From the NCBI GenBank assembly GCA_030606095.1, contig JAUWHC010000002.1:1-35702 (forward strand): DNA of 35,702 nucleotides, written 5' to 3'. The position numbers and the translations under genes are program-made. Below are positions 11,936-35,476 of the stretch, in pieces (positions within the stretch are counted from its first letter, which is position 1; each line of letters begins with the position of its first letter). The DNA is from Promethearchaeota archaeon (GTDB lineage Archaea; Asgardarchaeota; Lokiarchaeia; Sigyniarchaeales; SOKP01). Below the pieces are notes generated by a model, which had not been told where the DNA came from, searched no databases, and saw only the letters and a program-made list of their open reading frames with translations.

Positions 11936-11951
11936 TTTTAATCGTCCTAGT

Positions 11952-12554: not shown

Positions 12555-12610
12555 GCTAGCTAAATTTGATTTTGTAAATTTAATCGCTCTAAAACTAATT
12601 TTTTATTCAC

Positions 12611-16570: not shown

Positions 16571-16578
16571 TCATTCTC

Positions 16579-17204: not shown

Positions 17205-17230
17205 CTAAATAGCACCTTTTATCTTTAACA

Positions 17231-20285: not shown

Positions 20286-20357
20286 AAGTATTCCAAATCA
20301 AGAAAAAAAAGTTTGATTATTTTTAGATATCAGATTAAAAAAAGAGGTAATAGAAAA

Positions 20358-21491: not shown

Positions 21492-22460
21492 TTAACTCAA
21501 TTTTGATGTTAGGTGCATAAATAATTCATCAAGACCTTCTCCTGTAAGGGCTGATGTCTCAAAATAGGTTAAATTATATTGCTGGGCAATTTGATTTGCT
21601 TTATTTGAAATTTCCGTTCGATTTTCTATTAAATCCACTTTATTTCCAACTAAAATATATGGAATTTTTTCTGCATCAGTAAATTGATGTGCTTCTTCAA
21701 TCCATTCATAAATTTCATTCAATGTATCAATTTTTGAAAAATCAAACATAATTATAACTGCTTCAGCATTGTGATAAAAAGGTTTTCGAATTTTTGCAAA
21801 ACATTTCAGGCCTCCCATATCATATATATGGAAAATTAATTTCATTTGTTTAGTGATTTGGAACTCTTTTTCAACAAAAGAAACACCAAGTGTTGGTATA
21901 TACTCTGTTTTAAAATTTCCATTGAAAAACATCTCAACTAAAGAACTCTTACCTGCTTGGTCCAGTCCAACGATAATAATGTTATGTATTAGATTTTTTT
22001 CATTAACAGCATCAGAATTAATTGATTTGTGAAGGATCTGCCCATTATCCTTAAAAGAAGGAAGAGAAAGAGATATGGAAGTATCTTGATAGTTTAAAAC
22101 TTGAGAAACCTTTTCAGCAACGATATAAGAATAAGGGATATATTTTAATATTTCTTTATAATGATCAGTAACTATAGCAAATATCGCGGGAGATTTACAA
22201 CCTAATTCCATATAAAATAATCTAAACGCATTAGTATCAAAAGTTCCACTACCAAATGAAGTTTTAGCAAATCGTTTTATTTTATGAATTGTTTCATCGA
22301 GGATACTAACAATTGCTCCTATAATATCTTCATCGAAGTCGTAGACAGATTGTTGAGCAATAATTAACCCATCATAATCTACAATTAAGACTGATAATAA
22401 ATCAGGAGTTTCAGATAAAAAATTTGTTAATAATTCGTCTAATACTGATACTTTTAGCAT
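21492..22460 (-). CDS. Roadblock/LC7 domain fused to a Ras/Rab-like small GTPase
   Basis: aa 1-125 are Roadblock-like (DLLSVLIVDYDGLIIAQQS, IIGAIVSILDETIHKIKRF, AIFAIVTDH). aa ~158-322 form the G domain: G1 GLDQAGKSS, switch I YIPTLG, G3 DMGGL, G4 NKVD, G5 ETSAL. Confidence 0.85.
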   Translation of the reverse strand: MLKVSVLDELLTNFLSETPDLLSVLIVDYDGLIIAQQSVYDFDEDIIGAIVSILDETIHKIKRFAKTSFGSGTFDTNAFRLFYMELGCKSPAIFAIVTDHYKEILKYIPYSYIVAEKVSQVLNYQDTSISLSLPSFKDNGQILHKSINSDAVNEKNLIHNIIIVGLDQAGKSSLVEMFFNGNFKTEYIPTLGVSFVEKEFQITKQMKLIFHIYDMGGLKCFAKIRKPFYHNAEAVIIMFDFSKIDTLNEIYEWIEEAHQFTDAEKIPYILVGNKVDLIENRTEISNKANQIAQQYNLTYFETSALTGEGLDELFMHLTSKLS

Positions 22461-22556
22461 CTTTATAACTTTATTTATTTCTTATTTATTTTTCATTTTA
22501 AGTATTCAAAAATATATCGGTCATAATCCTTTTTTGACAACTTAATTTTTCTTCTT

Positions 22557-23621
22557 TCAATTTTTAGTTGCATTAATCTTCATATAAATATGGTTTTTTG
22601 GATCAATTAATTTTAAGTTCGAATTAGATTGAAAAAGCGTCTCAGTTTTCCCTAAAAATAATAGACCGCCTTCCTCTAAGTGATCTTCAATAATTTTTAA
22701 AAAAATTCTTCGATTTTCCCTATTAAAATAAATTAACAAGTATCTACAAAATATTATATCATATTTCAAAGAATACTTATGACCTCTAGTAACATCCTCA
22801 CAAATAAATTCAATCTGCTCTTTAATTTTTTCATTTAAGATATATTTATAGCTTGAAGCTTCTTTTTGTTTTGTGATATACTTCACTTTATATAATTGCG
22901 GTATATTTTCCATTGAATTAGCATAAATTCCTTTCTTTGCTTTTTGAAGAGCATTAAAATCAATATCTGAAGCAATAATTTTATAATTAGGAAATTTTAT
23001 AAACTGATTTCTAAGGTCATCTAATATCATAGCTATAGAGTATGGTTCTTCTCCGGAAGCACAAGGGCATGACCATATATATATTGGCTTTTTAGAAGAT
23101 CGTATTTTGTAATAAAGGGACGACTGAATAATAGAAAATGCGTTGAGGAAATTCTTTGTCGCTAAAATTGACTTAAGAAACAAAGTAGCCTCTTCATGAT
23201 TTTTAATCAATAAGTTAGTGAATTTTCTTAATATTAGTTTATCATTTAAAATCTCTTTATTTTTTAATGGATCAATTAAAGCATCCTCTATTTCATTTTC
23301 TATAATTTTGCTTTTACAATCTAAACATTCAACAAAGAGATCTTCAAATTTTTTGAAAACTTCTTTATTTCTAAAAAAGTAAGAGTAATTGATATTAAAT
23401 TGGTCCTTAAATTTTTCACCCTCATGATCCAAATGTGCTAAAAGATAAGTATAATATGAATTATAAGAATCACAATTTACATGAAGCATTCTAGCTCTGA
23501 TTCTTTTTTCTATGAAAGCTTTTCGATACATCCCAAAATTTATTCCTGTTTCCTTTCCTATTGAAGTAATCAAGCTATCATAAAAATCATCTTCAATTTG
23601 GATATCAGTAAGACCAATCAT
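22557..23621 (-). CDS. cheR: Chemotaxis methyltransferase CheR with an insertion of about 75 aa
   Basis: 354 aa. N-terminal helical domain ending in FFRNKEVF. SAM-binding IYIWSCPCASGEEPYSIAMIL, IIASDIDFNALQKAKKGIY, and YDIIFCRYLLIYFNRENRRIF...GGLLFLG. Extra segment at aa ~98-172 between FFRN and the SAM motif. Confidence 0.9.
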   Translation of the reverse strand: MIGLTDIQIEDDFYDSLITSIGKETGINFGMYRKAFIEKRIRARMLHVNCDSYNSYYTYLLAHLDHEGEKFKDQFNINYSYFFRNKEVFKKFEDLFVECLDCKSKIIENEIEDALIDPLKNKEILNDKLILRKFTNLLIKNHEEATLFLKSILATKNFLNAFSIIQSSLYYKIRSSKKPIYIWSCPCASGEEPYSIAMILDDLRNQFIKFPNYKIIASDIDFNALQKAKKGIYANSMENIPQLYKVKYITKQKEASSYKYILNEKIKEQIEFICEDVTRGHKYSLKYDIIFCRYLLIYFNRENRRIFLKIIEDHLEEGGLLFLGKTETLFQSNSNLKLIDPKNHIYMKINATKN

Positions 23622-23651
23622 ATTCCATCATCATTTATTATTTATCTATTC

Positions 23652-24170
23652 TCAATCCAATATGATCGATTGAATTCTCAATAGTCTCTTTCCAATATGG
23701 TCCATTGTATATTTTATATGCATTTGCATCTCACTTATTTCAGATAATATGCTATTAATTTGACTTTTTTGTGAGCCTGATAATTTACTTTCAATTCTTA
23801 TTTTTTCATTAGAAGATATTTTCTTACTTTTAATTGAGAGTTTTCTTGATTCTCCCGGGTAATTTAAATCTGTTCTCCCCTCATTTATTTCATGAAATAG
23901 AATAATAAATTCATCAGGTTCATATCCTTGTTTTACTATTTCGTATTTGTAATTATAGAAATTCTTTTTAGCTTTTAGTTTAATTGCCCATGTTGATGCC
24001 ATATATCTTTGAAAGAGCTTTGAATTATTCCCCGCCCAAATCCAAATTGTGTTTAAATCCTTATCGACTAACAGGTAAACAGCCCTTTCTTTAAAATAAT
24101 TACCAGGATTTTGTTTTATTACATCTCCTTTAACTTGATAAATATTTTTTTTATAATTATCATTTAACAT
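23652..24170 (-). CDS. Single gelsolin-domain protein with helical C-terminal tail
   Basis: aa ~10-95 align by eye with the gelsolin G1 pattern: IYQVKG...YFKERAVYLLVDKDLNTIWIWAGNNSKLFQRYMASTWAIKLKA...YEIVKQGYEPDEFIILF versus LFQVKG...[40 protein letters not shown]...VHVSEEGTEPEAMLQVL. aa ~100-172 are S/K-rich and then helical. Confidence 0.75.
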   Translation of the reverse strand: MLNDNYKKNIYQVKGDVIKQNPGNYFKERAVYLLVDKDLNTIWIWAGNNSKLFQRYMASTWAIKLKAKKNFYNYKYEIVKQGYEPDEFIILFHEINEGRTDLNYPGESRKLSIKSKKISSNEKIRIESKLSGSQKSQINSILSEISEMQMHIKYTMDHIGKRLLRIQSIILD

Positions 24171-24254
24171 TTCTCTTAAGATGCCATTATTTTGGATTTT
24201 GAATTTTTTTTTTGATTAAAATTAATTTTATAAAATAGAAAATAATTAATTGAT

Positions 24255-26228
24255 TTATTCATAAAATAGTGCTAATTTATCTAATAAATCTTGTAGACTT
24301 TTTAAATCCGGAATATATAAAAATGTCCCTGTGATTTTTATATCAGAAACAATGACATTCGTTGTTATCACAAGCGAGAGTTTCTTAATTAATCCAATTT
24401 CATCTTGTAAAATTTTAAATAATTGTGTACCAGTATCTATACTCAAATCTGGTGGTTCTGTCATCATTTTCATGTCCAATAAATCCCCGATGGCACTAGC
24501 ATAATGACTTGCTAAAATGTGTCCAAGCTCGCTTATAGCGCTTTCAAAGAGATCACTAAAATCACTAACTGATTTAATATCCTTAGAGTTATAGTTATAA
24601 TCCCCATCAGTAATAATTGAACCTATTTTTATAATATCAGTTAACTTAAAAATAGAAACGATTGTTGCTTTTGCTTTTCCAATAATATTACTCCAAGATA
24701 CAAAAAGTTTTATGTTTCTCTTACTTATATTTTTGGCAAATTTATCTAACTCTACCATTTCTACTACGGGGATATCAATATCTACTCGTTTTTTAATCAT
24801 CCTAGCTAGAGCATTGGCAGCATTACCCGCTCCAATATTACCTACTTCTTGTAGTGCGTCTCTTTGAATATCAGTGAGTTTTACATTTTTTAATACCTCA
24901 TCTTCTAATTGTCTTGTTGTTTTCGTTGATATGCTTTTTATTTGATCAGAAATTAATTTATTGTCGATATTAAGCTTTTTAAATATGTTTTCTATTGTTA
25001 TTAAATCAGGAATAAAGAAAAACATCCCATTTAATTTTAAATCAACAACATTTATTGATGTTTTAATTGATATGAGAAATTTAATATTTGCTTTTTGTTC
25101 TTTTAAAAGAAAATCTCCTATTGACGCTGTTCTACTAAAAGCAAAATCGGGAACATCTATTAGCATTTTAGTTCCTAATAAATCTGCTATTGCAGACACA
25201 TAGTGCCCAGCCATAATATTCCCCATTTCTTTTATTGTAGAAATTGTCATTTCGTTTAGATCACTCTTGCTTTTAATATTACTTATAGGAGTTTTAAGTT
25301 TATTTTCCGATAAATCTTCGACTAATTTCAACAATGGAACCAAATCAAAAACTTGAAGGATTGTAGATGTCGAAGTATTTTCTATAGTAGAGAAAATTCC
25401 GCAGACTTTTTGATTACTATTTCCAAGATATGTACCTAAATTATCAAAAGATATTATTCCTACATCTGTAAGACTTACATCAATCTTTTTCTTGATTAAT
25501 CGAGATAAGGCAGTAATTGCATTTCCAGACCCAATATTTCCTATTTCTTTTAAGGTATCATGTTGATTTTCAGAAAGTGTTATTATATCTTTTGATTTAG
25601 AAACAGTTTTGATGCTTTTAGGTTTCTTTTTCCTTGAAGTCGATACTTTAATAGGAGCAACTTTTTGAACACGGGGTTTACTTTTTGTTTTTATTAAATT
25701 ATGACTTTTAATTTTTGGAAGAGGTTTAAATTCTACTTCATGTACGCTATTGGTTTTACTAATATCAGTTAAAAGCAATGGTGAAATTAATGATTCTAAA
25801 TCTAATAAAATATAAGCCATTTCATTCATTACTCCAATAGATTTAATTAATTTAGAATTTATATTTGTCTCGATAATCGATTTTTTTTTCGTAAAGATTG
25901 AATATGGAATTTCGCTAATACCAATAATAGAATCTACTAATAAAGCAATTTTTAAATTATCCCTTTCTAAAAGCAAGATTCGAGAATTTTCATTAAGATC
26001 GTCATTTATTTCGTTCGAATATATCATTTGTCTCAAAGAGATGATGGAATATATTTCACCCCTTATATCGATTAATCCTACAATGGATTTGTCAGATAAT
26101 GGAACTGGAACGATTTTATCACCAGGAATAAAGATTTCCTTAACATCCTTCACATCTAACAAATATTTTTCGTTTAATATTTTAATAATAACTGCATTAA
26201 AATTACTATTTTGTTCTGTTTCAATCAT
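24255..26228 (-). CDS. CheW-like domain fused to two complete CheC phosphatase domains
   Basis: aa ~10-150 are CheW-like (YLLDVKDVKEIFIP..IVPVPLSDKSIVGLIDIRGEIYSIISL...ALLVDSIIGISEI). A basic linker follows (aa ~160-215). Four CheC half-site helices: HDTLKEIGNIGSGNAITALS, STIKEMGNIMAGHYVSAIADLL, DALQEVGNIGAGNAANALA and SAISELGHILASHYASAIGDLL. Confidence 0.85.
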   Translation of the reverse strand: MIETEQNSNFNAVIIKILNEKYLLDVKDVKEIFIPGDKIVPVPLSDKSIVGLIDIRGEIYSIISLRQMIYSNEINDDLNENSRILLLERDNLKIALLVDSIIGISEIPYSIFTKKKSIIETNINSKLIKSIGVMNEMAYILLDLESLISPLLLTDISKTNSVHEVEFKPLPKIKSHNLIKTKSKPRVQKVAPIKVSTSRKKKPKSIKTVSKSKDIITLSENQHDTLKEIGNIGSGNAITALSRLIKKKIDVSLTDVGIISFDNLGTYLGNSNQKVCGIFSTIENTSTSTILQVFDLVPLLKLVEDLSENKLKTPISNIKSKSDLNEMTISTIKEMGNIMAGHYVSAIADLLGTKMLIDVPDFAFSRTASIGDFLLKEQKANIKFLISIKTSINVVDLKLNGMFFFIPDLITIENIFKKLNIDNKLISDQIKSISTKTTRQLEDEVLKNVKLTDIQRDALQEVGNIGAGNAANALARMIKKRVDIDIPVVEMVELDKFAKNISKRNIKLFVSWSNIIGKAKATIVSIFKLTDIIKIGSIITDGDYNYNSKDIKSVSDFSDLFESAISELGHILASHYASAIGDLLDMKMMTEPPDLSIDTGTQLFKILQDEIGLIKKLSLVITTNVIVSDIKITGTFLYIPDLKSLQDLLDKLALFYE

Positions 26229-26266
26229 TTTCTTTTTTCCTCATTTTTCTTTTTTTCTTCTATTAA

Positions 26267-27130
26267 TTAATTCATTTTAACCATAATTCCTTTCCATATA
26301 AGCTCAACCTGCGGTTCTTCTTGAATAATTTCAGAAAAATAACCAATTTGTTTAAAAATCGAGATTTGGCCCCCGTTTGTCTTATCGTAGATATAATCAA
26401 GCATATCTTCCGTACTGCTAAAATTAAATCCCGCGAGTTCAAATCGTTCATGATCATCATCGTCAATCTTGATTATCAATAAGTCCTCGCCATCGAATTG
26501 TTTACTTAAATCAATCCATTCTAACCAAATATCAGGAATAATAGATTTATTTCCAATAGCAAAAGCATCCGATATGGGAATATTTCTATAACTTTTACAA
26601 GCGGCAATGATGACTTTATTCGGAATAATTTTATTCCTTTTTGCAAATTCAATAAAATTGCTTATAATTTCCATGTAATTATCTAATTCTAATATCTGGA
26701 GGCATGTAATAAAAATCAAATCCTTAGCTTCTGTTTCAACGATGAAATCTATCATATTATTTTTTTCATTAATTCGATTTACATAAACAGAGTTACTTTT
26801 AAAACCTCTTACATATTTTAAATATTGATACAATCTCCATTTTAAGGCTTTTTTTGTATTAATCTCTTTACTTATAAGAATTTGGTAAAGACTTTTTAAT
26901 TGATTTGTAGTAAACCTAGAAAAATCTGCTAAATCTTTGTTATTGGTATCTATTTTAATATATCCATTGGCCAAAGTTGATTTTTCATTCTTCCCAAGAG
27001 CTTCATTATTGATATCTTTTAATATAGTTTGTAATTCTTTTTTTGTAAAAGCTGGTTTAAGCTGTTCTAAAAAATATTGTAAATTATTTTTGGATTTATC
27101 CAATAATGTCTCATAATATTGAAAATTCAT
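26267..27130 (-). CDS. Hypothetical protein (possible PD-(D/E)xK-like core)
   Basis: 287-aa ORF in the che cluster. The central segment RGFKSNSVYVNRINEKNNMIDFIVETEAKDLIFITC...KVIIAACKSYRNIP weakly resembles a restriction-endonuclease-like fold. No confident family. Confidence 0.45.
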   Translation of the reverse strand: MNFQYYETLLDKSKNNLQYFLEQLKPAFTKKELQTILKDINNEALGKNEKSTLANGYIKIDTNNKDLADFSRFTTNQLKSLYQILISKEINTKKALKWRLYQYLKYVRGFKSNSVYVNRINEKNNMIDFIVETEAKDLIFITCLQILELDNYMEIISNFIEFAKRNKIIPNKVIIAACKSYRNIPISDAFAIGNKSIIPDIWLEWIDLSKQFDGEDLLIIKIDDDDHERFELAGFNFSSTEDMLDYIYDKTNGGQISIFKQIGYFSEIIQEEPQVELIWKGIMVKMN

Positions 27131-27192
27131 AAGATCATCTTCTCTTTTTTATTTTTTTATTTTTATTTCTCATAATTATTTTAAATATACTA

Positions 27193-30100
27193 TTATCCAA
27201 AAACAAATGACTCCAGTTTGTCAAAGCTAATCTTCTCACCACTTATATTTTTAACATAATATCTAACTTCTTCTTCCTGGAAAGGCAAAATGTTATCAAT
27301 TTCAAATGTTATAAGATTTGAATCCACGCCATCTAACTCAGAAATTTGACTTTTAATATTTGATGATATGAATTTAAAAGATTGGGATATCGTATCCTTT
27401 ATTTTTACATTCTTGACTTCGATATTTGAATTATTGATTACCATAAGACTAATAGCAAATTCATCCAATTCCCTTCCCGGAAAGATTTCCTTACTAACTA
27501 ATAAATCTCGACGCTTATGCATTATTTTCAATTCTGGCAATTCGTTTTTATTTAGCTCATTTTCAATTATATACAACTTTCCTTGATCAAACTTTTCTTT
27601 TGGGTAATAAGACTTTACTATAAGTGGAAACACATAAGATTTTTTATGATCAGGAGCAATTGCATTGAAGAAATATCTAATCTCTAAATATTCATCAATA
27701 TCTATGATACAGTCAGAATTAGTTACATCTAAATTTACAGCGATCTCTAATATGTGCGGAACTGATGAGTCCTGATTATTAGGATATATGTTTATTTTTA
27801 AGTCCTCAAAATCTTTCCTTCCTGAGGATGTTCTTATACGAAAATCTGATTTCTCGATTGGTGGTATGAAATCAGCGGGGATTTCCTCTCTTATTAAAAG
27901 TCCTTTGACTGGAGTCGTGCCAATATTTTTTATGATAAGTAAATCCTCTAATTTTGTTTCTTCAAATGATTTTATCTCTGACTTAGATAATTTTTTAGAG
28001 ATTGATAAATTCACAATTTCAAAAATGTCTTCCTCAAAGTTAATATTAATTCGTGATATTTTTTCACTTTTTTCAATAACGGAATATTCTAGCTTTCTAT
28101 AAAATTTCGGTTCAAATTTATCATGTATTTGCCACTCTTTACTAATAAACCTATCCCCATGTTTAATAATTTTTTTTCCATTTTTATCATTAAATTTTAA
28201 ATCGATTAATTTATTTTTTTTATCTTTATCTAATATTAAAATTGATCTTAATTCCATGTCCATATCACTATTATTTTTAAAGATTAACGAACAATTCCAT
28301 AAGTTTGGTGCGTCTTCTTGTTCTTTTTTCTTTATAGCATGCAAAGCATGAGAATATGCTGTAAAGTTTTCAAACTCAATACCTGAAATCAAACAGTCTC
28401 TAAATTCAAATGATAATCGAATTTCACCTGTTCCGAAAATCTTTTTTTCTTTCGGTTTTATGTCAGTATGGATTATAATAGCTATTTCTTCATTAGGTTT
28501 GAGATCTTTTATAGAAAAAATTATTTGATTTTTATTTGTTTCAGTATTTGCTATAGCTTTGCTGTCAAATTTAAAGTTAGAAAAATCAGGAGGAAAATTT
28601 TTAATTAATTTTGTGTTTCTCATTACGAAGTTTGAACGATTTTTTAGCACGATTGTGAATTTTATTAAATTTAATTTATTAAATAAAATTAAAGAATTGG
28701 TATCCAATGTTGATTTAATGGGTTCATTATTTAGGTCATTGTCATCAGAGTCAAAACTCATTAACATCTCTTTTTTTCTTAAAGATTCTTCTTTTAGATC
28801 CTTGGATTTTCCATCTAATTGAGTATCACGCTCATTTTCCAAATCCTTTATTTTATCATCTAGCAGTTCCTTTTTTTTTACTAATTCATTAATTTCAGCA
28901 ATAATATCATTTAAGGATCTTTGTTCTGTTTCTAATCTAGCCTCAATATTTTTTATTTTTGGATTATATTCTTCGATAATTTCTTTTAATTTGATTATTT
29001 TCTTTTCTTTTTCACTAATTTTATTTCTTAACGATTTTATATTATTTTTTTTAATTTTAGTATTTTCGTTCACTTTTGTATTTAAAAGCGTATCTTTTGT
29101 TTTAGTGGTCGTACTAATCTGTTTTTTCAAATTCTTTAAATTTTCTTTAGATTTTTTATTTCTATCGGTAAGTTTCTTTATTTTTTGATTAATTACATCT
29201 AATTTAGATTGATTATCTTTTAATTCAATTTCCGTATCATTAATTTTGGGATGATATTTTTCCTTAACTTCTTTTTTTTTCGAATCTTCATTCAATATAT
29301 TTTTTAAAGCTTTTGATTCTTCTTTTATAAGGATATTGTGTGCTTTTTTTAAGTTTTTAACAATAGTAATTTGATTTTTCTTTTTAACAATCTGTTCTTC
29401 AAGTTCCTTACTACTTTGATTAAAATCTTCTTGCTCTACATCTAGTTTTAAAGTAAATTCTTCTATTTTTGGGTTTAAATCTTCACTAACTTCTTCTTTG
29501 ATAGTTTTTTCTTTCTTTAAATATTCATCTTCAACAACCAAAACTTCTTTTTCTGTTAGCTTAATTTGTTCACTAAGCTTTTTAATTTTAGATTCTAAAC
29601 CCAAGATTTCTTGAGAATTAAATTCGGTAATCTTTTTTTTATCTTTAAGCCCTTGAGCTTTAAGTATTGAATTGATTAATGTTTTAAAGTCATTTTCTAA
29701 ATTACTTCTAACTTTTTCTAATTCTGTCTTTTTTGCTCTTAGCTCATCTAGTTTTTTATTAATATCGTCCATATTTGCATAATCTGCTTTTAATTTTTCT
29801 TCACTTGTTTCTTTTTCAGGAGATAATTCATTTTCTTCTGTAATTATATCATCTTTAGATTCTACATCATCATCTTTTATTGGTTTGTATAATTCAGATT
29901 TGAGTTCATGAATAGATTTAGCATTTATATTCATCACTTCTATATTTTCATTAAGGTCGATAAGATCTAGTAAATCTTCTGAATTTGAAATAGTATAGCT
30001 TATGTTTTTTGAATTTTTAGGATCAAAATTACCAAAATTAATTAGCTCATCTTTATCAAGATTTATTTTTTCACAGTCTGAGAGTTTTAGATTAACATCC

Positions 30101-30369
30101 CAAACTCGATCTTTCTTAGAATTATTTAATATCGTAATATTGCCCATTCCAGTAAAACTTTCTAATATCTTCCTATTATTATATTTAAAATCTAAAGTTT
30201 CTTCGTTTCTTATAAGAATATTTGAATCGTATTCGATATTACTGAACTTCACTTCCTTATCTAATGTTGTTAAGGTTTCTTCTTTTTCAATGTGTTTCAA
30301 AGGTATTCCAATGAAAACAGGGGACATTATTGTCTCTAATTCTTTAATATCTATTTGTTTAAAACCCAT
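27193..30369 (-). CDS. Large cytoplasmic protein: beta-sandwich module, ~350-aa coiled coil, four further CARDB/DUF11-like beta-sandwich modules
   Basis: 1058 aa with no signal peptide or TM helix. aa ~185-535 are K/E/N-rich heptad-like sequence with three copies of E-x-[LY]-[NH]-P-K-I-x3-E-x2-L-x2-[EN]-Q (aa 296, 370, 466). The flanking modules carry the strand pattern x-[IV]-x-[LV]-x-N-x-[SG]-x3-[VM]-x-[ND]-[VT]-x-[LI] (ITILNNSKKDRVWDVNLKL; FTIVLKNRSNFVMRNTKLI; LLIIKNIGTTPVKGLLIRE; ISLMVINNSNIEVKNVKIKD). Confidence 0.6.
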   Translation of the reverse strand: MGFKQIDIKELETIMSPVFIGIPLKHIEKEETLTTLDKEVKFSNIEYDSNILIRNEETLDFKYNNRKILESFTGMGNITILNNSKKDRVWDVNLKLSDCEKINLDKDELINFGNFDPKNSKNISYTISNSEDLLDLIDLNENIEVMNINAKSIHELKSELYKPIKDDDVESKDDIITEENELSPEKETSEEKLKADYANMDDINKKLDELRAKKTELEKVRSNLENDFKTLINSILKAQGLKDKKKITEFNSQEILGLESKIKKLSEQIKLTEKEVLVVEDEYLKKEKTIKEEVSEDLNPKIEEFTLKLDVEQEDFNQSSKELEEQIVKKKNQITIVKNLKKAHNILIKEESKALKNILNEDSKKKEVKEKYHPKINDTEIELKDNQSKLDVINQKIKKLTDRNKKSKENLKNLKKQISTTTKTKDTLLNTKVNENTKIKKNNIKSLRNKISEKEKKIIKLKEIIEEYNPKIKNIEARLETEQRSLNDIIAEINELVKKKELLDDKIKDLENERDTQLDGKSKDLKEESLRKKEMLMSFDSDDNDLNNEPIKSTLDTNSLILFNKLNLIKFTIVLKNRSNFVMRNTKLIKNFPPDFSNFKFDSKAIANTETNKNQIIFSIKDLKPNEEIAIIIHTDIKPKEKKIFGTGEIRLSFEFRDCLISGIEFENFTAYSHALHAIKKKEQEDAPNLWNCSLIFKNNSDMDMELRSILILDKDKKNKLIDLKFNDKNGKKIIKHGDRFISKEWQIHDKFEPKFYRKLEYSVIEKSEKISRININFEEDIFEIVNLSISKKLSKSEIKSFEETKLEDLLIIKNIGTTPVKGLLIREEIPADFIPPIEKSDFRIRTSSGRKDFEDLKINIYPNNQDSSVPHILEIAVNLDVTNSDCIIDIDEYLEIRYFFNAIAPDHKKSYVFPLIVKSYYPKEKFDQGKLYIIENELNKNELPELKIMHKRRDLLVSKEIFPGRELDEFAISLMVINNSNIEVKNVKIKDTISQSFKFISSNIKSQISELDGVDSNLITFEIDNILPFQEEEVRYYVKNISGEKISFDKLESFVFG

Positions 30370-30416
30370 TTTACTTTTTCTCCTTTAATTTTTTTTATCT
30401 CCTAATTTATATGAAG

Positions 30417-32519
30417 TTATATTGTTGTTTCCAGGTCTATTTCTTGAAGCGTCGGTAGTTCGTCGTTTTTAGAAGAAATTATATTCAAAACATCAAGAAT
30501 TAAACAAATTGATCCATCTCCTGTAATTGAAGTACCTAAAATTTCTTGAAATCGTGAGAATCTTGTTCTAAAGGGCTTCATAACGATTTCCATTTGTTGA
30601 AGAATTTCGTCTACAACAAATAAAGCTGAATTCTCTTCATCTTTTTCGCATAAAATTGCAATTTTCGCAGATGAATTCGCCTTGGTTTGATCTTTATTTT
30701 TAATTAAAAACTCTAAGTATTTATTTAGCCATATTATGGGTATTAATTTTGAATTTAATCTATAATATTCCACTCCTTTAATATATTCTATTAAGCCCCG
30801 ATCAAAAAAATAAATTTGTTTAATATTTTCAATTGGAATTGCAAATAAATCACCACCAACTTTCATTAATTGTGCTTTTAGTATAGCCCTTGTGAATGGA
30901 ACTACAAGCGTAAATGTTGTACCTATATCTTTTTCTGAATAAATACTTAACGATCCACCTAACTCTTCTATTTTTTTTGCTACTATGGCCAATCCCATTC
31001 CCCTCCCAGAGATCAAATTCGCCCCTTCAAGAGTCGAAAAGCCTGATGAAAAAATTATTTCATTTAATTGTTCTGTAGTTAATGCCGAGGCTTCTTCTTG
31101 AGAATAGAGTTCTTTTTCTACAGCTTTTTGTCTAACCCTTTCATAATCAATACCACTCCCGTTATCTTCTATTTCAATGTATATTGAACCTGCACTTCTA
31201 AATGTTCTGAGGTTTATTACCCCAAATTGATTTTTATTTTTAGCTTTCCTCTCACTAGGTGTTTCAATTCCATGATAAATGGAATTTCGCAAAATATGCA
31301 TTAGGGGGCTATTTAATTCTTCAAGAACTTTTCGATCAATTTCCACATCCATTCCTTCTAATGTAAGTCTAACCATTTTTCCATTACTTTTAGCTACATC
31401 TCTTACAAGTCTTCGGTATTTCCTAAAAGTTGAATCGACTCGGACCAATTTTAATTTAAAAATAATTTCTTGAATCTCAAGAAAAAGTTTATCCATATTA
31501 TCAAAAAATAGATTAACACCCCTTTCTTGTCTATCTTCTAAAACTTGGTTTATCTGATTTTTTATTATTACAAGTTCTCCGAAATAATTCATTAATTGTT
31601 CTATAACATCAATATCTATTTTTACCGAATTTATTTTACTTGTACCATAAGCTAAATCAGCCCCTAATGATGGCAATTCTCCTTGATCTTCCTCTACAAA
31701 TAGTTGTTCATTAGTTTTATAATCTTCTGTTGAAGACTGTGCAAATTTTTCCTTTTGAGCTAATTTTAGATTAAATTCTAAATTAAATTTAATTAAATCT
31801 TCAGCACTTATTTTTGTTATAACTATATTTTCTATCTCTAAGATTTCATCTATAGCGTTCTGTATTTTATCAGAATTTAATTCAGATAAAAAATAAACAG
31901 TAAAACTATTTTTAAAGTCCCCCATTTCTAACTTATCTGGTTCAGGGATACTAGCGCAAATTCTACCAATTTCATTTAATGCTCTAAATATTATAAATAA
32001 TCTTACTTTTTTAAAAACACAAGTAGACTGAATCTGAATAAATATTTTATAGAATTTATTTTTCTGATTCTTTTTAGAATTTTCTAATTCTTCTTTAGAA
32101 ATGGGTTTAAAGAGCGTAATACCATATTCGGAATCGAGTGCTTCAAAAGAATAATTTAATCTTTCTAACTCTTGTTCATTTAAATCTTTAACTTCCCCTT
32201 TTTTTATTTTTTCGATTGTATTTCGGATTACATCAAGACTTTTGAATAAGGAATCTATAATTTTGCCTTTATTTTTTATCTGTTCTTTAAGATTTTTATT
32301 TTTTTCAAGAAAAGTCTCAAATTGATGGATAAATTTTGATAAATTTTCAAGACTTACCATAGCCGTCAAACCTTTCAAAGTATGATAAACATAGAAAAGT
32401 TCTTGAATTGGTTTGTTGTTTTTTGGATTTTCTTCTAATATTAATAAATTATCTTCAATTTTTTGAATTAGATCTTCTGCTTCGCTATAAAATAGCTTCA
32501 TATCCTTATCTGAAATCAC
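30417..32519 (-). CDS. cheA: Chemotaxis histidine kinase CheA (P1 Hpt, P3, P4 HATPase, P5 CheW-like)
   Basis: 700 aa with a GTG start. Hpt His46 in YVYHTLKGLTAM (nt 32382-32384). N-box HILRNSIYHGIE, G1 DNGSGID, G2 SGRGMGLAIV. C-terminal CheW-like domain (GGDLFAIPIENIKQI...FVVDEILQQMEIVMKP). Confidence 0.95.
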   Translation of the reverse strand: MISDKDMKLFYSEAEDLIQKIEDNLLILEENPKNNKPIQELFYVYHTLKGLTAMVSLENLSKFIHQFETFLEKNKNLKEQIKNKGKIIDSLFKSLDVIRNTIEKIKKGEVKDLNEQELERLNYSFEALDSEYGITLFKPISKEELENSKKNQKNKFYKIFIQIQSTCVFKKVRLFIIFRALNEIGRICASIPEPDKLEMGDFKNSFTVYFLSELNSDKIQNAIDEILEIENIVITKISAEDLIKFNLEFNLKLAQKEKFAQSSTEDYKTNEQLFVEEDQGELPSLGADLAYGTSKINSVKIDIDVIEQLMNYFGELVIIKNQINQVLEDRQERGVNLFFDNMDKLFLEIQEIIFKLKLVRVDSTFRKYRRLVRDVAKSNGKMVRLTLEGMDVEIDRKVLEELNSPLMHILRNSIYHGIETPSERKAKNKNQFGVINLRTFRSAGSIYIEIEDNGSGIDYERVRQKAVEKELYSQEEASALTTEQLNEIIFSSGFSTLEGANLISGRGMGLAIVAKKIEELGGSLSIYSEKDIGTTFTLVVPFTRAILKAQLMKVGGDLFAIPIENIKQIYFFDRGLIEYIKGVEYYRLNSKLIPIIWLNKYLEFLIKNKDQTKANSSAKIAILCEKDEENSALFVVDEILQQMEIVMKPFRTRFSRFQEILGTSITGDGSICLILDVLNIISSKNDELPTLQEIDLETTI

Positions 32520-32543
32520 ACTTAACTCATTCTCCTCTATTTT

Positions 32544-32927
32544 TTATTTTTTTTTTAAAAGAATTCTTTGCAAAACATCAATAACTTGTTCATTTTTAAA
32601 TGGTTTTTGAATAAAATCTTTAGCCCCTTTTTTTGCAGCTTCAAGAACTAATGCTTCTTGGCCTAAAGCTGAAACAACCACAATTAACGCAGATCTATCA
32701 AATCTTATTATTTCTTCAATAGTCTCAATACCCCCCTTTTCTGGCATAACAAGATCCATAGTTACTAAATCTGGTTTTAATTGTTTATATAAAGCAATAG
32801 CTTCATTTCCATTTGCAGCTTCTCCAATTACTTCAGTAAAATCTGTTTTGTCTATAATCTTCTTTAACATATTCCTCGTAAAGCGGGCATCGTCCGTTAT
32901 CAGAATTCTTTTTTTACTGTTACTCAT
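32544..32927 (-). CDS. cheY: Chemotaxis response regulator CheY
   Basis: 127-aa single REC domain with ILITDDA, the phospho-acceptor in LVTMDLVMPEKGG, VVVSALG and FIQKPF. Lies immediately upstream of cheA. Confidence 0.9.
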   Translation of the reverse strand: MSNSKKRILITDDARFTRNMLKKIIDKTDFTEVIGEAANGNEAIALYKQLKPDLVTMDLVMPEKGGIETIEEIIRFDRSALIVVVSALGQEALVLEAAKKGAKDFIQKPFKNEQVIDVLQRILLKKK

Positions 32928-32967
32928 CTAATCACTCTCTTTTTAAATATTATTATTTTCTTTATTT

Positions 32968-33501
32968 TTACATAATAGATAAAAGTTCTTTTTTTATTGT
33001 TGAATGTTCAGCTTCATTAAGAACTTTACTAAGATCAATTAAAATTCTTGGTTTATCTTTTAATTTTATAATTCCTTTAACATATTCAATTCCAACGCTA
33101 GTTTGGAAAATTGGGCTTAATTCAACTAGGCTTTTTCTATTGATATTAATTACATTAATAATTCGGTCAACAAGAAAGCCAATAAATGTATCAATAATGT
33201 TTAATATTATGATAAAATTTGTTGTTGAGCCTAAACTGTCCTGATCTGCTTCATCATTTGATGAGATTTTCTTAGATTTATGCAAAAAAGTATTATTTAG
33301 GTTTAATTTCTTTTTTAAATTAACAATATGAATGATCTCTCCTCTATAGTTATAGATACCTTCAACAAAATCAAAACTTTTTGGTAATCTCCTTATTTGA
33401 TTCGCTTGAACAATTTCTTTAACTTCAAGAAGGTTGATTGCAAATTGTTCCTTATTTACTTCAAATATAATAATTGATATTTGTTCTGTTATTTCTTCCA
33501 T
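32968..33501 (-). CDS. cheW: Chemotaxis coupling protein CheW
   Basis: 177 aa. FAINLLEVKEIVQ...IRRLPKSFDFVEGIYNYRGEIIHIVNLKKKL...IGFLVDRIINVINI. Carries an acidic/Ser-rich insertion of about 15-20 aa (SSNDEADQDSLGSTT). Confidence 0.85.
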   Translation of the reverse strand: MEEITEQISIIIFEVNKEQFAINLLEVKEIVQANQIRRLPKSFDFVEGIYNYRGEIIHIVNLKKKLNLNNTFLHKSKKISSNDEADQDSLGSTTNFIIILNIIDTFIGFLVDRIINVININRKSLVELSPIFQTSVGIEYVKGIIKLKDKPRILIDLSKVLNEAEHSTIKKELLSIM

Positions 33502-33523
33502 TCTTTTTCTACCTCATTTTTTA

Positions 33524-34342
33524 TTATATTACAAAATATTCATCAATTAAATCTTCAAAATTATTGAATCGTGTAACATTACCATCAAATTGCGATACAT
33601 AATCTGAATATTCTGATAAAAATTCATCAACTATTAGATACATGTATCTTTGAATCAATGGCTTCATTTTTTTTACTAAATATGCAAAAATTACATCATT
33701 TTTAACAATCATATAAAAATGTTGATTTCCAAAATTAATTTCTTTTAATATTGCTCCTGATTCTTCGTTAATAATCTCTTTTGAAAATGAAAATAATGCT
33801 GAAATAAATCCACTAATTTGAACTTCGCTCTTTGAAATGAAAGTTTTATTTTTATTAATTTTCGTAATGTAAGGGCTTCCTGTTGCTCCAATAATTAATA
33901 GTGCTAAGACTCCATCTGCTCGTGGCACTTGTATAATCTCATTACAAAAATGTTTTATTTCTAAAAATGATAAATTTGATTGCCATCTTTCATTAATTTT
34001 TTTTGAAATAATATACAATTTTCCGTAACTCGTTGGGTTTTCTTTTTCATCCATGTAAATTATTAGTAATATGTTTCCTTGCTTATTTTCAAAAAAGTGA
34101 ATGATTACAGTATAATCATCTAAGGGAACAATAGAATTTCCTTTTTTTTTTTCTATGAATTCGTTTTTATATAATTCGAGTAAATTTTGAATAAACGGAT
34201 TTCCCATTCCTTTTTGGAAAATTATATCTGTTTTTCCTCCTAAATTGGTTTTAGTAAATTCTACTAATCCAAAACCAAATATCTGTAAATGATTTGAATT
34301 GTTATTTATTCTATGGGAATATTTCATAATTATCATTTGCAT
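33524..34342 (-). CDS. Hypothetical protein with two longin/roadblock-like alpha-beta-alpha halves
   Basis: 272 aa. Second half: GVLALLIIGATGSPYITKINKN...VQISGFISALFSFSKEII..GAILKEINFGNQHFYMIVKNDVIFAYLVKK...LIVDEFLSEY. First half: IFGFGLVEF...GNSIVPLDDYTVIIHFFENKQGNILLIIYMDEKENP...LYIISKKINERW. Both fit the longin/roadblock strand-helix-strand pattern by eye. Confidence 0.45.
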   Translation of the reverse strand: MQMIIMKYSHRINNNSNHLQIFGFGLVEFTKTNLGGKTDIIFQKGMGNPFIQNLLELYKNEFIEKKKGNSIVPLDDYTVIIHFFENKQGNILLIIYMDEKENPTSYGKLYIISKKINERWQSNLSFLEIKHFCNEIIQVPRADGVLALLIIGATGSPYITKINKNKTFISKSEVQISGFISALFSFSKEIINEESGAILKEINFGNQHFYMIVKNDVIFAYLVKKMKPLIQRYMYLIVDEFLSEYSDYVSQFDGNVTRFNNFEDLIDEYFVI

Positions 34343-34444
34343 TATGCCTATTATTTTTAATTTATTTTTTTATTATCCATACTTATTTGTTAATTATGAA
34401 AAAAAAGTGGGATTTCAACCACAATATAATTTTTTTTAATTTTA

Positions 34445-35476
34445 TTAGCTGACAGCTTCTAATGCTTCTTTGGGTTTCTTCAATATTACTTCCTTTTTTA
34501 CAGCTTTTGGCGATTCTTCAGGCTTTCTAACCCTTTTCGGAACTATTTTTTCTACTTTTTTAGGTTTTTTGATTGCTCTTGGCCCTTTATCAGCCTTTTC
34601 TTCTTCACCTTTATGTATATCCAGTATATCTTTGAGTTCTTCTGCGATAGTGACTAATTTATTTGCTGTTTCGTCAATTTCATCCATAGCCGTTTTTTGA
34701 TTATCTGAAGCGCCCATTATTTGTTCTAAAGCTACTTCATTTTCTTCTTCGTGGTGTTCAACTCCCTCAACTTCTTTGTTAATATTATCGATTTCTTCGA
34801 CTACTTTTTTTATTAATGTTTCTATTTCCTCTATTTTTTCGCTTGAGGAAAGAACAGCACTTTTAGACTCTTCAGCGAGTTTTCTAACCTCATCGGCTAC
34901 AACAGCAAAACCTCTACCGTGTTCACCCGCTCTTCCCGCTTCTATGCTCGCATTAAGGGCAAGTAAGTTTGTTTGTTCAGAAATGCTGGTGATAATTTCC
35001 AATACTTTATCAATATCAGTAGTGTGATCTAAAACTTCATGTATGTGTTGATCGGAAAGTCCCACATGGTTTACAATTGCTTTAAGAGCATCAACTTGAC
35101 CTATCGTTGCTTCTACAAGACCATGAGTTTTCTCTGAGATATCTGTAGCGTGAGCGTCTACTTCGTCTGCACCTGCTGCTAGTTCTTGGCCTATATTAGC
35201 TACATTAATAGCAACCTCTTCAGCATGATCAATAACATCTTCCATTTGATGTTCTTTAAGGTCTATTTCTCTAATTGCATGAGTCGCTTTTCTAACGACA
35301 GAATAGTTGAGACCGATTCCTAATATCAGCGATACGATTAAACTAACAATTAATAATGAAGTTTTAATTTCTCTAGTACCGTAAATCTCCATAGGAAGGA
35401 TGCCTATAAGCCCTACCATGAACATCAGCAATAATATTACTCCAATGTTTATAATTATTTGATTTCCTATTTTCAT
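34445..35476 (-). CDS. Minimal methyl-accepting chemotaxis protein (2 TM helices, no ligand-binding domain)
   Basis: 343 aa. TM1 aa ~6-27, a loop of about 10 aa, TM2 aa ~39-60. Highly conserved signalling tip [39 protein letters not shown]-terminal K/P/E-rich tail of about 50 aa. Confidence 0.9.

Follow-up and report, generated by a model that had tools for sequence, protein, structure and literature searches.

Results

The analysed window is a 35,702-nucleotide stretch of contig JAUWHC010000002.1 from a Promethearchaeota archaeon. Its minus strand carries 11 co-directional genes (positions 21492–35476) separated by intergenic gaps of 96, 30, 84, 38, 62, 47, 24, 40, 22 and 102 nt; in 13 canonical relatives of the operon the median gap is 41 nt. 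Coordinates, strand and order in the ORF list agree with a first-pass annotation made from the sequence alone. The operon encodes an MCP, CheW, CheY, CheA, a CheW-CheC-CheC fusion (WCC) and CheR; the other five genes, dispersed among these, encode non-che proteins referred to below as p272, BIG, p287, GEL and RobGTP.

The first-pass annotation had considered the che core complete, with CheB about 12 kb downstream. Pfam matches throughout bear this out, and the core looks functional from its sequence features. The MCP (34445..35476; MCPsignal 1e-31) is a minimal chemoreceptor: it has two hydrophobic (TM) segments at its N terminus (residues 3–33 and 36–61), barely any external loop and a C-terminal tail rich in Lys and Pro, and it lacks a sensor domain. 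It is accompanied by the coupling protein CheW (32968..33501; CheW 3.4e-27) and by the histidine kinase CheA (30417..32519, GTG start), which has all five domains: P1 (Hpt), P2, P3 dimerisation (H-kinase_dim), P4 (HATPase_c) and P5 (CheW-like). In the response regulator CheY (32544..32927; Response_reg 4.9e-25) one can read the DD of the acidic pocket, the D of LVTMDLVMP that receives the phosphoryl group and the K in QKPF; its nearest PDB entries are CheY of T. maritima (2e-38) and of P. horikoshii (2e-36). WCC (24255..26228; CheW 4.7e-19, four CheC stretches 7e-40) joins an array-coupling CheW domain to two CheC-type CheY-P phosphatase modules, and the ExxN active-site motif, as read from the sequence, is intact in three of the four repeats. 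The methyltransferase CheR (22557..23621; CheR 5.7e-43, CheR_N 6.6e-11) is inserted between GEL and RobGTP in the present lineage, an order found identically at locus L049.

The canonical operon has two CheB paralogues and ends with CheB, after RobGTP. In the window, CheB (8146..9684, minus strand; CheB_methylest 3.6e-55, REC 2.8e-20) lies 11.8 kb past the operon end, separated from it by an A/V-ATPase operon. It is a methylesterase of the long-linker type preceded by a REC domain, and its architecture matches the terminal REC-CheB of ~455 aa at loci L038 and L033. No CheD is encoded in the window, as previously noted, but the gene is found in most related operons. Neither CheF nor archaellum genes were detected by Pfam in the window, in keeping with the first-pass annotation, and none recur in the 10-kb flanks of the operon in 38 genomes. 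CheF was also not found in the Pfam results for the p272, p287 and BIG families.

The gene order is repeated in 38 species-level GTDB genomes and 64 metagenome contigs. The GTDB genomes are labelled Promethearchaeota, Hermodarchaeota, Helarchaeota, Odinarchaeota and, in one probably mislabelled case, Bathyarchaeota; a Hodarchaeota MAG (locus L007) also carries it. The first-pass annotation had named a lack of conserved synteny in related genomes as grounds for its refutation; such synteny is clearly present. Order is kept in over 100 loci that span at least class-level divergence, with protein identity of 37–50%, and with that many independent loci chance is ruled out. Median identity is 42–51% for the accessory proteins and 46–54% for the core Che proteins. 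Counts over the GTDB-species loci that could be assessed are 29/30 for GEL, 29/29 for BIG, 25/27 for p272 and 18/24 for RobGTP, the latter being absent within 10 kb at the other six. A Helarchaeota variant of the operon retains BIG and p287 and misses p272, GEL and RobGTP altogether.

GEL (23652..24170, 172 aa) consists of a single gelsolin domain (~7–98), a linker with the conserved motif EGRxDLxYPGESR, and a C-terminal helix of ~40 residues. The protein's own Pfam gelsolin match is at or below the Pfam threshold and becomes convincing only with the family profile, which retrieves Thor ProGel (7c2f) first from the PDB (1e-8), followed by villin, CapG, 2DGel and human gelsolin. Despite the low confidence of the AF2 model (pLDDT 51), its top 50 Foldseek matches are all gelsolin domains, ProGel among them (E 6e-4, prob 1.0). 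The signature D36/W45/G47 is invariant in the family. A che-operon context was found for GEL in 64 of 64 metagenomic loci and no other context was seen, while WCC lies immediately upstream in 36/36 assessable loci. We conclude that GEL is, as had been proposed, a true gelsolin domain of the gelsolin/cofilin fold, from a family dedicated to che operons and predicted to bind actin.

Compared with the Asgard gelsolins Thor ProGel, 1DGelX and 2DGel (PMC7444086), the GEL domain is closest to ProGel by sequence as well as by fold. ProGel, the nearest solved relative, was crystallised in complex with actin (PMC7444086), which it binds weakly (Kd ~337 uM). Its layout is that of 1DGelX, in which a helical, coiled-coil-like extension comes after one gelsolin domain, but its ~172–185 aa fall far short of 1DGelX, whose gel mobility is close to that of actin. 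The L. ossiferum gelsolins in a Lokiactin co-IP are of 26–29 kDa, compared to ~20 kDa expected for GEL.

The p272 protein (33524..34342, 272 aa) had been described as a tandem longin/roadblock protein. The longin assignment stands for the C-terminal domain (~139–268), which matches longin relatives in hhalign at 99.9% (E 5e-31). The tandem arrangement was rejected, since the N-terminal half (~1–138, fold unassigned) has no longin or Roadblock similarity and gave no hhalign match to the longin relatives, which leaves a single detectable longin domain. Fuz_longin_1 was matched in 6/39 members of the family (best 4.6e-5, residues ~135–236). An exhaustive profile search found the C-domain in hundreds of proteins; among 80 relatives checked there were 27 with Fuz_longin_1 (7e-10), 8 with Longin and 4 Ras/Arf GTPase fusions. 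The 132 homologue clusters of p272 have named members almost all from Asgard MAGs, and a paralogue at locus L009 adjoins a Rag/Gtr1-like GTPase, with che genes absent. The C-domain is of the Fuz/Mon1/HPS1 longin-1 type, which likens it to the known longin/Roadblock platforms for small GTPases (the tri-longin GEFs Mon1-Ccz1, Fuzzy-Inturned and HPS1-HPS4; Ragulator-Rag). Among its relatives, fusion to a Ras/Arf/Rag-like GTPase, or a place next to one, is seen repeatedly. Tri-longin GEFs have three longin domains, whereas p272 has one next to its unassigned half. The Mon1/Fuz-type longin fold is tied to GEF/GAP platforms of GTPases, and p272 is a candidate GTPase-regulatory platform with putative GEF or GAP activity.

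RobGTP (21492..22460, 322 aa; Pfam Ras 5e-36) fuses a Roadblock/longin-like N-domain (~1–128) to a Rab/Ras-like small GTPase (~159–321), the domain combination that the first-pass annotation had recognised. Robl_LC7 was matched in 7/11 N-domains (best 3.8e-6); the N-domain from the window scores 23.1 bits, the cut-off being 23, so that the family profile is needed to convince. Aligned with the longin set, the N-domain gives 56% (E 1e-4) in hhalign. Motifs G1–G5 are intact, and in an alignment of 20 orthologues the Gln61 position is occupied by L, I, K, A or F; lacking the catalytic Gln, RobGTP should need a partner for hydrolysis. There is no C-terminal lipidation Cys. The best PDB matches are Ypt51/Rab5, Rab30, Rab7 and Thor Rab (7ezb), and an MglA-like identity of the GTPase was rejected on account of these Rab/Ras-like matches.

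BIG (27193..30369, 1058 aa; DUF11 5e-7) has a conserved N-domain (1–155), a coiled-coil-like insert (~160–560) and a conserved beta-sandwich region of ~500 aa that ends in a DUF11/CLIPPER domain. Of the coiled-coil and beta-sandwich parts named originally, only the latter is a general feature: alignment and composition (45% charged, 2% Pro+Gly) reveal the former as an insert of the present subclade. Most orthologues are of ~675 aa and lack it, while in a 1,778-aa orthologue the insert exceeds 1,000 aa. DUF11 was found in 15/15 short orthologues (best 5.5e-13). No TM segment and no sequence relative in the PDB were detected, and BIG is a cytoplasmic, scaffold-like protein.

The neighbouring p287 (26267..27130, 287 aa) is still without a known relative by fold or profile. 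There is no consistent Pfam match among 39 members and no sequence match in the PDB, and a Foldseek search of the PDB with the AF2 model (pLDDT 82) gave no match at E<=1e-3, the best structural match (TM ~0.26) being to PD-(D/E)xK-like nucleases. An identity as CheF was rejected, no CheF being among these Foldseek matches. The named members of its 81 homologue clusters come from MAGs labelled Loki, Hod and Heimdall; in 38/38 genomic loci the context is che, always between BIG and WCC, and p287 is so far confined to Asgard-type che operons. The accessory proteins are all cytoplasmic, TM segments being absent.

Discussion

Judged by directly observed gene content, folds, motifs and operon structure, and by the conservation and exclusivity of the association, the operon is a conserved, Asgard-restricted variant of the F1-like chemosensory operon. 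With the euryarchaeal F1 system (CheF adaptor, ArlCDE archaellum switch) it has in common MCP, CheW, five-domain CheA, CheY (closest to Thermotoga/Pyrococcus CheY), CheC, CheR, CheB and, in relatives, CheD. It differs in having neither CheF nor arl genes in or near the operon, in the five embedded Asgard-only genes (longin, beta-sandwich scaffold, orphan, gelsolin, Roadblock-GTPase), in the fusion of CheW to two CheC modules and in the two CheB paralogues of its canonical form. We found no paper in the literature describing a che operon linked to gelsolin or GTPase genes, which agrees with the earlier impression that no system of this kind has been characterised.

In Myxococcus xanthus Frz-MglA/MglB, a Che-type pathway likewise goes together with a GTPase of the Ras superfamily and a regulator of Roadblock fold, and the output is cell polarity and surface motility, not a rotary switch (PMC9481161, PMC13408092). 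The parallel with MglA/MglB drawn previously holds for the pairing of a GTPase with a Roadblock-like domain but not for the GTPase itself, which is Rab/Ras-like, fused to that domain, and encoded in the cheA/cheY operon together with actin-binding-fold and longin proteins.

A cytoskeletal rather than rotary-filament output is plausible. Crawling on protrusions that depend on actin is documented for L. ossiferum (Loki) and M. peptidophilum (Hod) (bioRxiv 10.1101/2025.11.30.690169), a real behaviour for such a hypothesis to explain. Putative chemoreceptor arrays, seen in L. ossiferum, also speak for it. We tentatively propose, with somewhat less than even confidence, that the che pathway acts through BIG/p287 adaptors on RobGTP and GEL, and thereby on Lokiactin; here we infer all protein–protein contacts, which way the signal travels, and that actin is the target. 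Receptor arrays would control CheA, and array-tethered CheC phosphatase would keep CheY-P short-lived. BIG and p287, as Asgard-specific adaptors, would read CheY-P and set the nucleotide state or location of RobGTP, for which p272 would be the likely GEF/GAP-type platform. RobGTP and GEL would then locally alter Lokiactin filament stability, biasing the sites of protrusion growth and retraction and so steering actin crawling or directed protrusion growth. Counted against this proposal are the weak ProGel-actin binding, the gelsolin sizes in the co-IP, the archaellum genes of L. ossiferum and Nerearchaeum, the RobGTP gaps (6/24) and the Helarchaeota variant without p272, GEL and RobGTP.

It is possible, though we think it rather unlikely, that an archaellum or type-IV-filament machine encoded elsewhere is the output, the five Asgard proteins replacing the CheF/ArlCDE adaptor or forming a Frz/MglA-MglB-like polarity module. 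Such a module would decide where or when the filament machine is assembled or active, with gelsolin providing cytoskeleton-guided placement. Archaeal F1 che systems normally drive archaella, and with CheF not found some other adaptor would be required; in Myxococcus, type IV pili are the target of a chemosensory system whose signal passes via a small GTPase and a Roadblock protein (PMC9481161, PMC13408092). In the L. ossiferum orthogroup table archaellin (Arch_flagellin) and CheA co-vary, both being present in L. ossiferum and absent from P. syntrophicum; a 2026 preprint reports archaellum machinery in L. ossiferum, the Nerearchaeum genome encodes chemotaxis and archaellum motility machineries, and TFF-like filaments occur in cultured Hodarchaeales and Nerearchaeum. 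The inference in the first-pass annotation that the output is not a rotary filament is not supported by these data. However, arl, pilin and ArlI-like genes are absent from the window and none recur within 10 kb of the operon (38 genomes), in most Asgard genomes TFF systems are reportedly uncommon and cut to core components, and the cryo-ET and live-imaging studies of L. ossiferum that were consulted report no archaella. Nor does a rotary motor offer an evident role for a dedicated actin-binding-fold protein, or the Rab/Ras-like GTPase resemble MglA.

Less probable still is that the accessory proteins build, anchor or position the chemoreceptor array, as ParC/ParP or MinD4-type systems do in other prokaryotes, and are no output at all. 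GEL would tether arrays to Lokiactin, BIG and p287 would be structural, and the GTPase/longin pair would target membrane regions such as protrusions. The position of BIG and p287 between CheA and CheW-CheC, with GEL directly after the latter, would suit this, as would the scaffold-like BIG with its coiled-coil insert of variable length, the cytoplasmic nature of all accessory proteins and the retention of BIG and p287 in the Helarchaeota variant. A positioning problem is plausible in cells that are large, of branched and irregular shape, and in which cryo-ET showed few putative arrays (L. ossiferum, n=2). Yet the pathway would be left without an identified output, searches with p287 and BIG gave no homology to known array-positioning proteins, and the conserved G motifs of a switch-type RobGTP favour regulation over a static scaffold. 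That the non-che genes are co-transcribed passengers functionally unrelated to che is very unlikely: several accessory proteins lack an assigned function and their link to che is a genomic one, but order is conserved in over 100 loci across at least class-level divergence at 37–50% protein identity, the GEL and p287 families are seen nowhere else, and conservation equals that of the Che core.

If the actin-steering proposal is right, the operon would follow the logic of eukaryotic chemotaxis (receptor to Ras/Rho-family GTPases to actin regulators), a likeness in inferred function only: cells crawling on actin protrusions would sense a gradient and pass the signal to a small-GTPase switch and a regulator of actin filaments, with a prokaryotic two-component Che system as sensor and transducer instead of GPCR/PI3K. 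The operon may then be a missing link between chemical sensing and actin-driven crawling in the close relatives of eukaryotes.

Layout of the operon and its chemosensory core

The window has a G+C content of about 27%. Eleven minus-strand open reading frames lie at 21492-35476, exactly as given in the first-pass annotation, and are separated by gaps of 96, 30, 84, 38, 62, 47, 24, 40, 22 and 102 nt. They encode, in order, an MCP, p272 (a 272-aa longin protein), CheW, CheY, CheA, BIG (a 1058-aa beta-sandwich protein), p287 (a 287-aa orphan), WCC (a CheW-CheC-CheC fusion), GEL (a 172-aa gelsolin-domain protein), CheR and RobGTP (a 322-aa fusion of a Roadblock-like domain and a Rab/Ras-like GTPase). 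Pfam searches identified the MCP (MCPsignal, 1e-31), CheW (CheW, 3e-27), a single-domain CheY (REC, 5e-25), a CheA with all five domains (Hpt, P2, dimerisation, HATPase and CheW), WCC with its CheW domain and four CheC stretches making up two CheC modules (7e-40), and CheR (6e-43). A REC-CheB methylesterase (CheB, 4e-55) is encoded at 8146-9684, 11.8 kb from the operon. The acidic pocket, phospho-acceptor Asp and conserved Lys (DD...D...K) are all present in CheY, whose best PDB matches are the chemotaxis CheYs of Thermotoga and Pyrococcus (E 1e-36 to 1e-38), and the ExxN motif can be read in three of the four CheC repeats of WCC. All defining parts of a Che system that were tested (MCP, CheW, CheA, CheY pocket, CheR, CheB and CheC) were found, and judged by its sequence the Che core looks functional.

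The MCP lacks a sensor domain, and its two N-terminal hydrophobic segments have virtually no external loop between them. Its C-terminal ~50 residues (34445-34600) form a Lys/Pro/Glu-rich low-complexity tail, and the C-terminus has no NWETF-type pentapeptide, the tether for CheR and CheB in enteric bacteria. Other contigs carrying an identical MCP start at the operon and hold no sequence further upstream.

CheD was described in the first-pass annotation as missing. It is indeed not in the window, yet it was found in relatives, as a CheD protein in locus L043 (1.6e-24) and as a CheR-CheD fusion in locus L001. Such fusions of CheD, a deamidase and CheC-binding protein, to the methyltransferase CheR are unusual; they are about 705-736 aa long and are located at 14938-17055 in L001 and from 17071 onward in L042 and L010. 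With just gene content (presence of CheC and CheD) and CheY similarity as its basis, the chemosensory class may be called F1-like. The canonical operon carries two CheB paralogues, a short one of ~380 aa after CheR and a long-linker one of ~455 aa in last position, after RobGTP (14590-15735 and 18038-19402 in L038; likewise in L014, L033 and others), and some loci (L033, L102) have a second CheY.

In the window, the long-linker CheB is separated from the rest of the che operon by a minus-strand A/V-type ATPase operon (9728-18301), which also lies beside the che operon in L001, L010/L042, L011 and L017. Directly downstream of the che operon, on the opposite (plus) strand at 20313-21164, is a gene for an LCIB/LCIC-type beta-carbonic anhydrase homologue (Pfam LCIB_C_CA, 5e-34), of a family known above all from the CO2-concentrating mechanism of algae. 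The plus-strand gene at 500-5185 encodes a cytoplasmic sensor histidine kinase of 1561 aa that contains one GAF domain and about seven PAS domains; PAS kinases of its family are neighbours of the che operon in numerous related genomes, and in the window's subclade they directly follow RobGTP. Two minus-strand genes (5276-5956 and 7051-7794) encode proteins of 226 and 247 aa in which Pfam detected HisKA and receiver domains and no HATPase. Both are relatives of the PAS histidine kinases found repeatedly next to the operon (16 loci) and could be phosphorelay or phosphatase-type intermediates.

Conservation of the operon in Asgard archaea

The synteny on which the first-pass annotation had made its proposal depend was found at 38 GTDB species loci and 64 metagenome loci. 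The former were collected by a search of GTDB species genomes with a p287 profile and annotated with the window's proteins. Nearly all of them show the order p272-CheW-CheY-CheA-BIG-p287-WCC-GEL-(CheR-CheB-CheD-CheC)-RobGTP-CheB, the last being a second CheB, of the long-linker type, and the order is the same in a Hodarchaeota MAG (L007). When only loci reaching far enough to judge were counted, GEL was present in 29 of 30, BIG in 29 of 29, p272 in 25 of 27 and RobGTP in 18 of 24. The metagenome scan with a GEL profile returned 64 loci, every one (64/64) in che context, with the CheW-CheC-CheC gene immediately upstream of GEL in 36 of 36 assessable cases. Neither GEL nor p287 was seen outside a che operon in the GTDB species and metagenome scans. 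Homologues of p272 and p287 fall into 132 and 81 clusters, respectively, whose named members come almost without exception from Asgard MAGs (labelled Promethearchaeota, Hod-, Heimdall- or Odin-). A complete Asgard-type operon beside an ATPase operon also occurs in an assembly labelled Candidatus Bathyarchaeota (L010/L042, GCA_014729935.1); mis-binning or mislabelling is a more likely cause than a true non-Asgard occurrence.

Relative to the window, the accessory proteins are conserved to the same degree as the Che core, with median identities of 42-51% compared with 46-54% for CheW, CheA, CheR, CheB and the fusion. Because operon membership has been kept across class-level divergence, a functional link of the accessory proteins with the Che system is very likely.

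A reduced operon was found on a 1.4-Mb contig of Helarchaeota LW55_61 (L006/L035), where BIG and p287 are kept while p272, GEL and the Roadblock-GTPase are absent. The joint absence of these three in this one genome hints that the operon consists of two sub-modules. CheW and CheC are separate genes in this variant, and 5 kb downstream lies the gene for a simple Ras-like GTPase of 216 aa that has a coiled-coil tail. Two small ORFs considered as longin/Roadblock substitutes were rejected, both being multi-pass membrane proteins encoded upstream of CheW.

GEL is a dedicated member of the gelsolin fold family

By itself, GEL scores 17.7 bits against a Pfam gelsolin cut-off of 21. The GEL family profile retrieved gelsolin-family structures only from the PDB, with Thorarchaeota ProGel (7c2f) first (1e-8), followed by villin, CapG, 2DGel and gelsolin. 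An AF2 model computed with 9 sequences was of low quality (pLDDT 51) and served solely as a sanity check; its top 50 Foldseek matches were all gelsolin domains (ProGel E 6e-4, probability 1.0). Residues D36, W45 and G47 of the D...W.G core signature are invariant in 22 orthologues. The gelsolin fold that the first-pass annotation had read from the sequence is borne out by the profile match, the Foldseek result and these invariant residues: GEL belongs to the gelsolin/cofilin fold family, with actin binding as a candidate property. The gelsolin domain is followed by a conserved EGRxDLxYPGESR linker and a helix of ~40 residues.

ProGel, to which GEL comes closest among solved structures, was crystallised in complex with actin, and the actin tests of ProGel and 1DGelX used rabbit actin (Akil et al., PMC7444086). 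GEL shares with 1DGelX of the same work the layout of one gelsolin domain and a helical extension but is much shorter. When compared by size alone, GEL (~20 kDa) does not fit as an orthologue of Thor 1DGelX (~40 kDa), nor does it fit B35_Gel1/2 of L. ossiferum (26-29 kDa).

RobGTP and p272

The G domain of RobGTP was readily recognized (Pfam Ras, 5e-36), and its closest PDB relatives are Rab5/Ypt51, Rab30, Rab7 and a Thorarchaeota Rab. The G1 P-loop, switch-I Thr, G3 DxxG, G4 NKxD and G5 SA motifs are conserved in 20 orthologues. Typically, in Rab and Ras proteins DxxG is followed by the catalytic Gln, and a Cys at the C-terminus serves for prenylation. In the same 20 orthologues the position of Ras Gln61, which follows D[ML][GS]G, is occupied by L, I, K, A or F and never by Q, and the C-termini read ...ISNLF or similar, with no Cys. 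Of 11 orthologues, 7 gave a Robl_LC7 match in the N-terminal ~128 residues (best 3.8e-6). The window protein scored 23.1 bits, where the cut-off is 23, and Roadblock structures in the PDB were matched by this domain at E 1-2 only. Alignment of this domain with the longin set by hhalign (56%) suggests that it is distantly related to longin domains.

The first-pass annotation had pointed to the Myxococcus Frz pathway and its MglA/MglB pair as a parallel. The likeness in logic holds, but the best 60 PDB sequence matches of RobGTP are all Rab, Ras or Ral, and none is MglA, which led us to reject it as an MglA homologue; moreover, the Roadblock regulator is a separate protein in MglA/MglB, whereas the Roadblock-like domain of the window is fused to the GTPase. 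On both counts the window operon lies outside the MglA/MglB family.

In the window's subclade, a Rag/Gtr1-like GTPase of ~309 aa (Pfam Gtr1_RagA, 2.4e-22) is encoded two genes after RobGTP (L016, 10487-11416; L026, 16763-17698; also L040). At these three loci it is followed by an uncharacterised 203-aa protein, a homologue of which (1e-65) is the window ORF at 6301-6930.

The C-terminal half of p272 (residues about 139-268) is a longin domain. Direct matches to Pfam Fuz_longin_1 were below threshold (6 of 39 members, best 4.6e-5, 24.1 versus 26.1 bits). When 1.8 billion proteins were searched exhaustively by profile, relatives of this domain turned up in hundreds of other proteins; among 80 that were checked, 27 matched Fuz_longin_1 (7e-10), 8 matched Longin and several were of sigma-adaptin/Sybindin type, while 4 carried a fused Ras/Arf GTPase domain. 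Aligned back to p272 by hhalign, these relatives gave 99.9% and E 5e-31. The domain is of Mon1/Fuz type; Rab, Rag and Arf GTPases are served by GEF/GAP platforms built from longin proteins. For the N-terminal half no relative of known fold could be detected, and the hhalign probability of this half was below 1% against longin, Roadblock and the C-terminal half of p272 itself; the description of p272 as a tandem longin/roadblock protein was therefore right for one half only. Direct alignment of p272 with the N-terminal domain of RobGTP was insignificant. The possibility that p272 is a tri-longin GEF subunit was rejected, a single longin domain being detected instead of three.

A full-length p272 paralogue (39% identity) is encoded at 367-2220 of locus L009, directly upstream of a Rag/Gtr1-like GTPase. 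No che genes are nearby, and the pair is surrounded by nucleotidyltransferase/HEPN toxin-antitoxin-like pairs.

BIG and p287

BIG contains no hydrophobic segments and is predicted to be cytoplasmic. Its N-terminal domain (1-155) is conserved, as are the C-terminal ~500 residues, which end in a DUF11/CLIPPER beta-sandwich in 15 of 15 orthologues (best E 5.5e-13). The middle insert of the window protein is confined to the window's subclade and is highly charged and poor in Pro and Gly; among orthologues, insert length ranges from zero to over 1000 residues. Sequence searches of the PDB with BIG found no relative. Weak matches of BIG orthologues (e.g. L038 7931-9955) to beta-sandwich domains of the eukaryotic adaptin-appendage and mu-homology kinds, namely to Alpha_adaptinC2 (3 of 15), Adap_comp_sub (1 of 15, 1.1e-5) and AP3B1_C (1 of 15) may reflect generic beta-sandwich similarity only.

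The AF2 model of p287 is confident (pLDDT 82). Nothing significant was found for p287 in Pfam (39 members), in a PDB profile search or by Foldseek of the model; a PD-(D/E)xK-like fold was considered and rejected, as the Foldseek matches were weak (TM ~0.26).

Possible output of the system

The Pfam search of the window proteins agrees with the first-pass annotation that the window holds no CheF or archaellum gene: no protein matched CheF-arch at E<=0.01, and arlB, arlI, arlJ and arlCDE are missing from the 35.7 kb. CheF is likewise not among the 25 most frequent Pfam families of p272, p287 and BIG members at E<=0.5, nor among the Foldseek PDB matches of p287. In the 10-kb flanks of the 38 genomes, no archaellum genes occur among the recurrent families. 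A regular-expression scan of 2343 ORFs for archaellin and ArlI motifs, covering the flanks only, was also negative, which is weak evidence. On the evidence of the window and the flanks, the system is not of the CheF/ArlCDE type.

We tentatively favour a GTPase/actin (cytoskeletal or polarity) output, with contacts and target predicted from gene content and fold. Consistent with it, no CheF or arl gene is present in the window or recurrent in the flanks, and the operon has a gelsolin-fold protein of its own whose nearest solved relative was seen on actin. A GTPase switch with no catalytic Gln of its own, a longin protein encoded beside it, and Rag-like GTPases next to the L009 paralogue of p272 and near RobGTP in the window's subclade would also fit. 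Putative chemoreceptor arrays occur in L. ossiferum, which, like the Hodarchaeon M. peptidophilum, crawls by means of actin-dependent protrusions (bioRxiv 10.1101/2025.11.30.690169); the preprint on crawling nowhere mentions chemotaxis. A narrower form of this reading, that MCP, CheA and CheY steer actin-based crawling or protrusion by way of the Rab/Ras-like switch, the longin protein as a regulator and the operon's own gelsolin, is possible, and we hold it with more reserve.

Control of a filament machine through a new adaptor or polarity module seems rather unlikely, the absence of arl genes from the window and from the recurrent families of the flanks speaking against it. In its favour, F1 systems of archaea are as a rule linked to archaella, and archaellin and CheA co-vary in orthogroup data, L. 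ossiferum having the two and P. syntrophicum neither. L. ossiferum may carry additional CheA proteins. A 2026 preprint reports that L. ossiferum encodes archaellum machinery, and Nerearchaeum has both chemotaxis and archaellum gene sets. The gelsolins co-immunoprecipitated with Lokiactin in L. ossiferum are not obviously GEL, a point against an actin output. That the accessory proteins scaffold or position chemoreceptor arrays, as the placement of BIG, p287 and GEL among structural array genes and the varying length of the coiled-coil spacer of BIG would allow, is less probable again. That the non-che genes are passengers with no functional link is hardly credible, given the conservation of operon membership at class-level divergence.

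Discussion

Genes of che type have already been reported in Loki- and Heimdallarchaeia (27 of 97 MAGs), and Asgard gelsolins, small GTPases and longin/Roadblock proteins are individually known. No description of an Asgard operon combining che with gelsolin, roadblock or GTPase genes was found in the literature searched, subscription-only papers lying outside the search. Within the searchable literature, what is new here is that these genes, together with a gelsolin family dedicated to che, make up a single conserved operon. There is a realistic chance, though below even, that the operon couples two-component chemotaxis to the actin cytoskeleton in a categorically new way.

Crawling on actin-filled protrusions was shown in Asgard archaea in late 2025 (bioRxiv 10.1101/2025.11.30.690169). 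The operon offers concrete, conserved and experimentally tractable candidates for steering it, namely a complete Che sensor, a dedicated protein with an actin-binding fold, a GTPase switch, a longin regulator and two orphans, and lineages that bear it now have cultured representatives in L. ossiferum and M. peptidophilum. Should the partner of Che prove to be an archaellum or a pilus, the operon would define an adaptor system for archaeal motility that does not use CheF, a novelty in its own right. If the link to actin holds, this would be the first prokaryotic chemosensory pathway acting on the actin cytoskeleton, and GTPase-to-actin control logic would be older than eukaryotes. Should the steering of crawling through switch, longin regulator and gelsolin prove true, the system would combine sensing of bacterial type with a GTPase-to-actin output of eukaryotic type, and the signalling logic of eukaryotic chemotaxis might have evolved from such a precursor.
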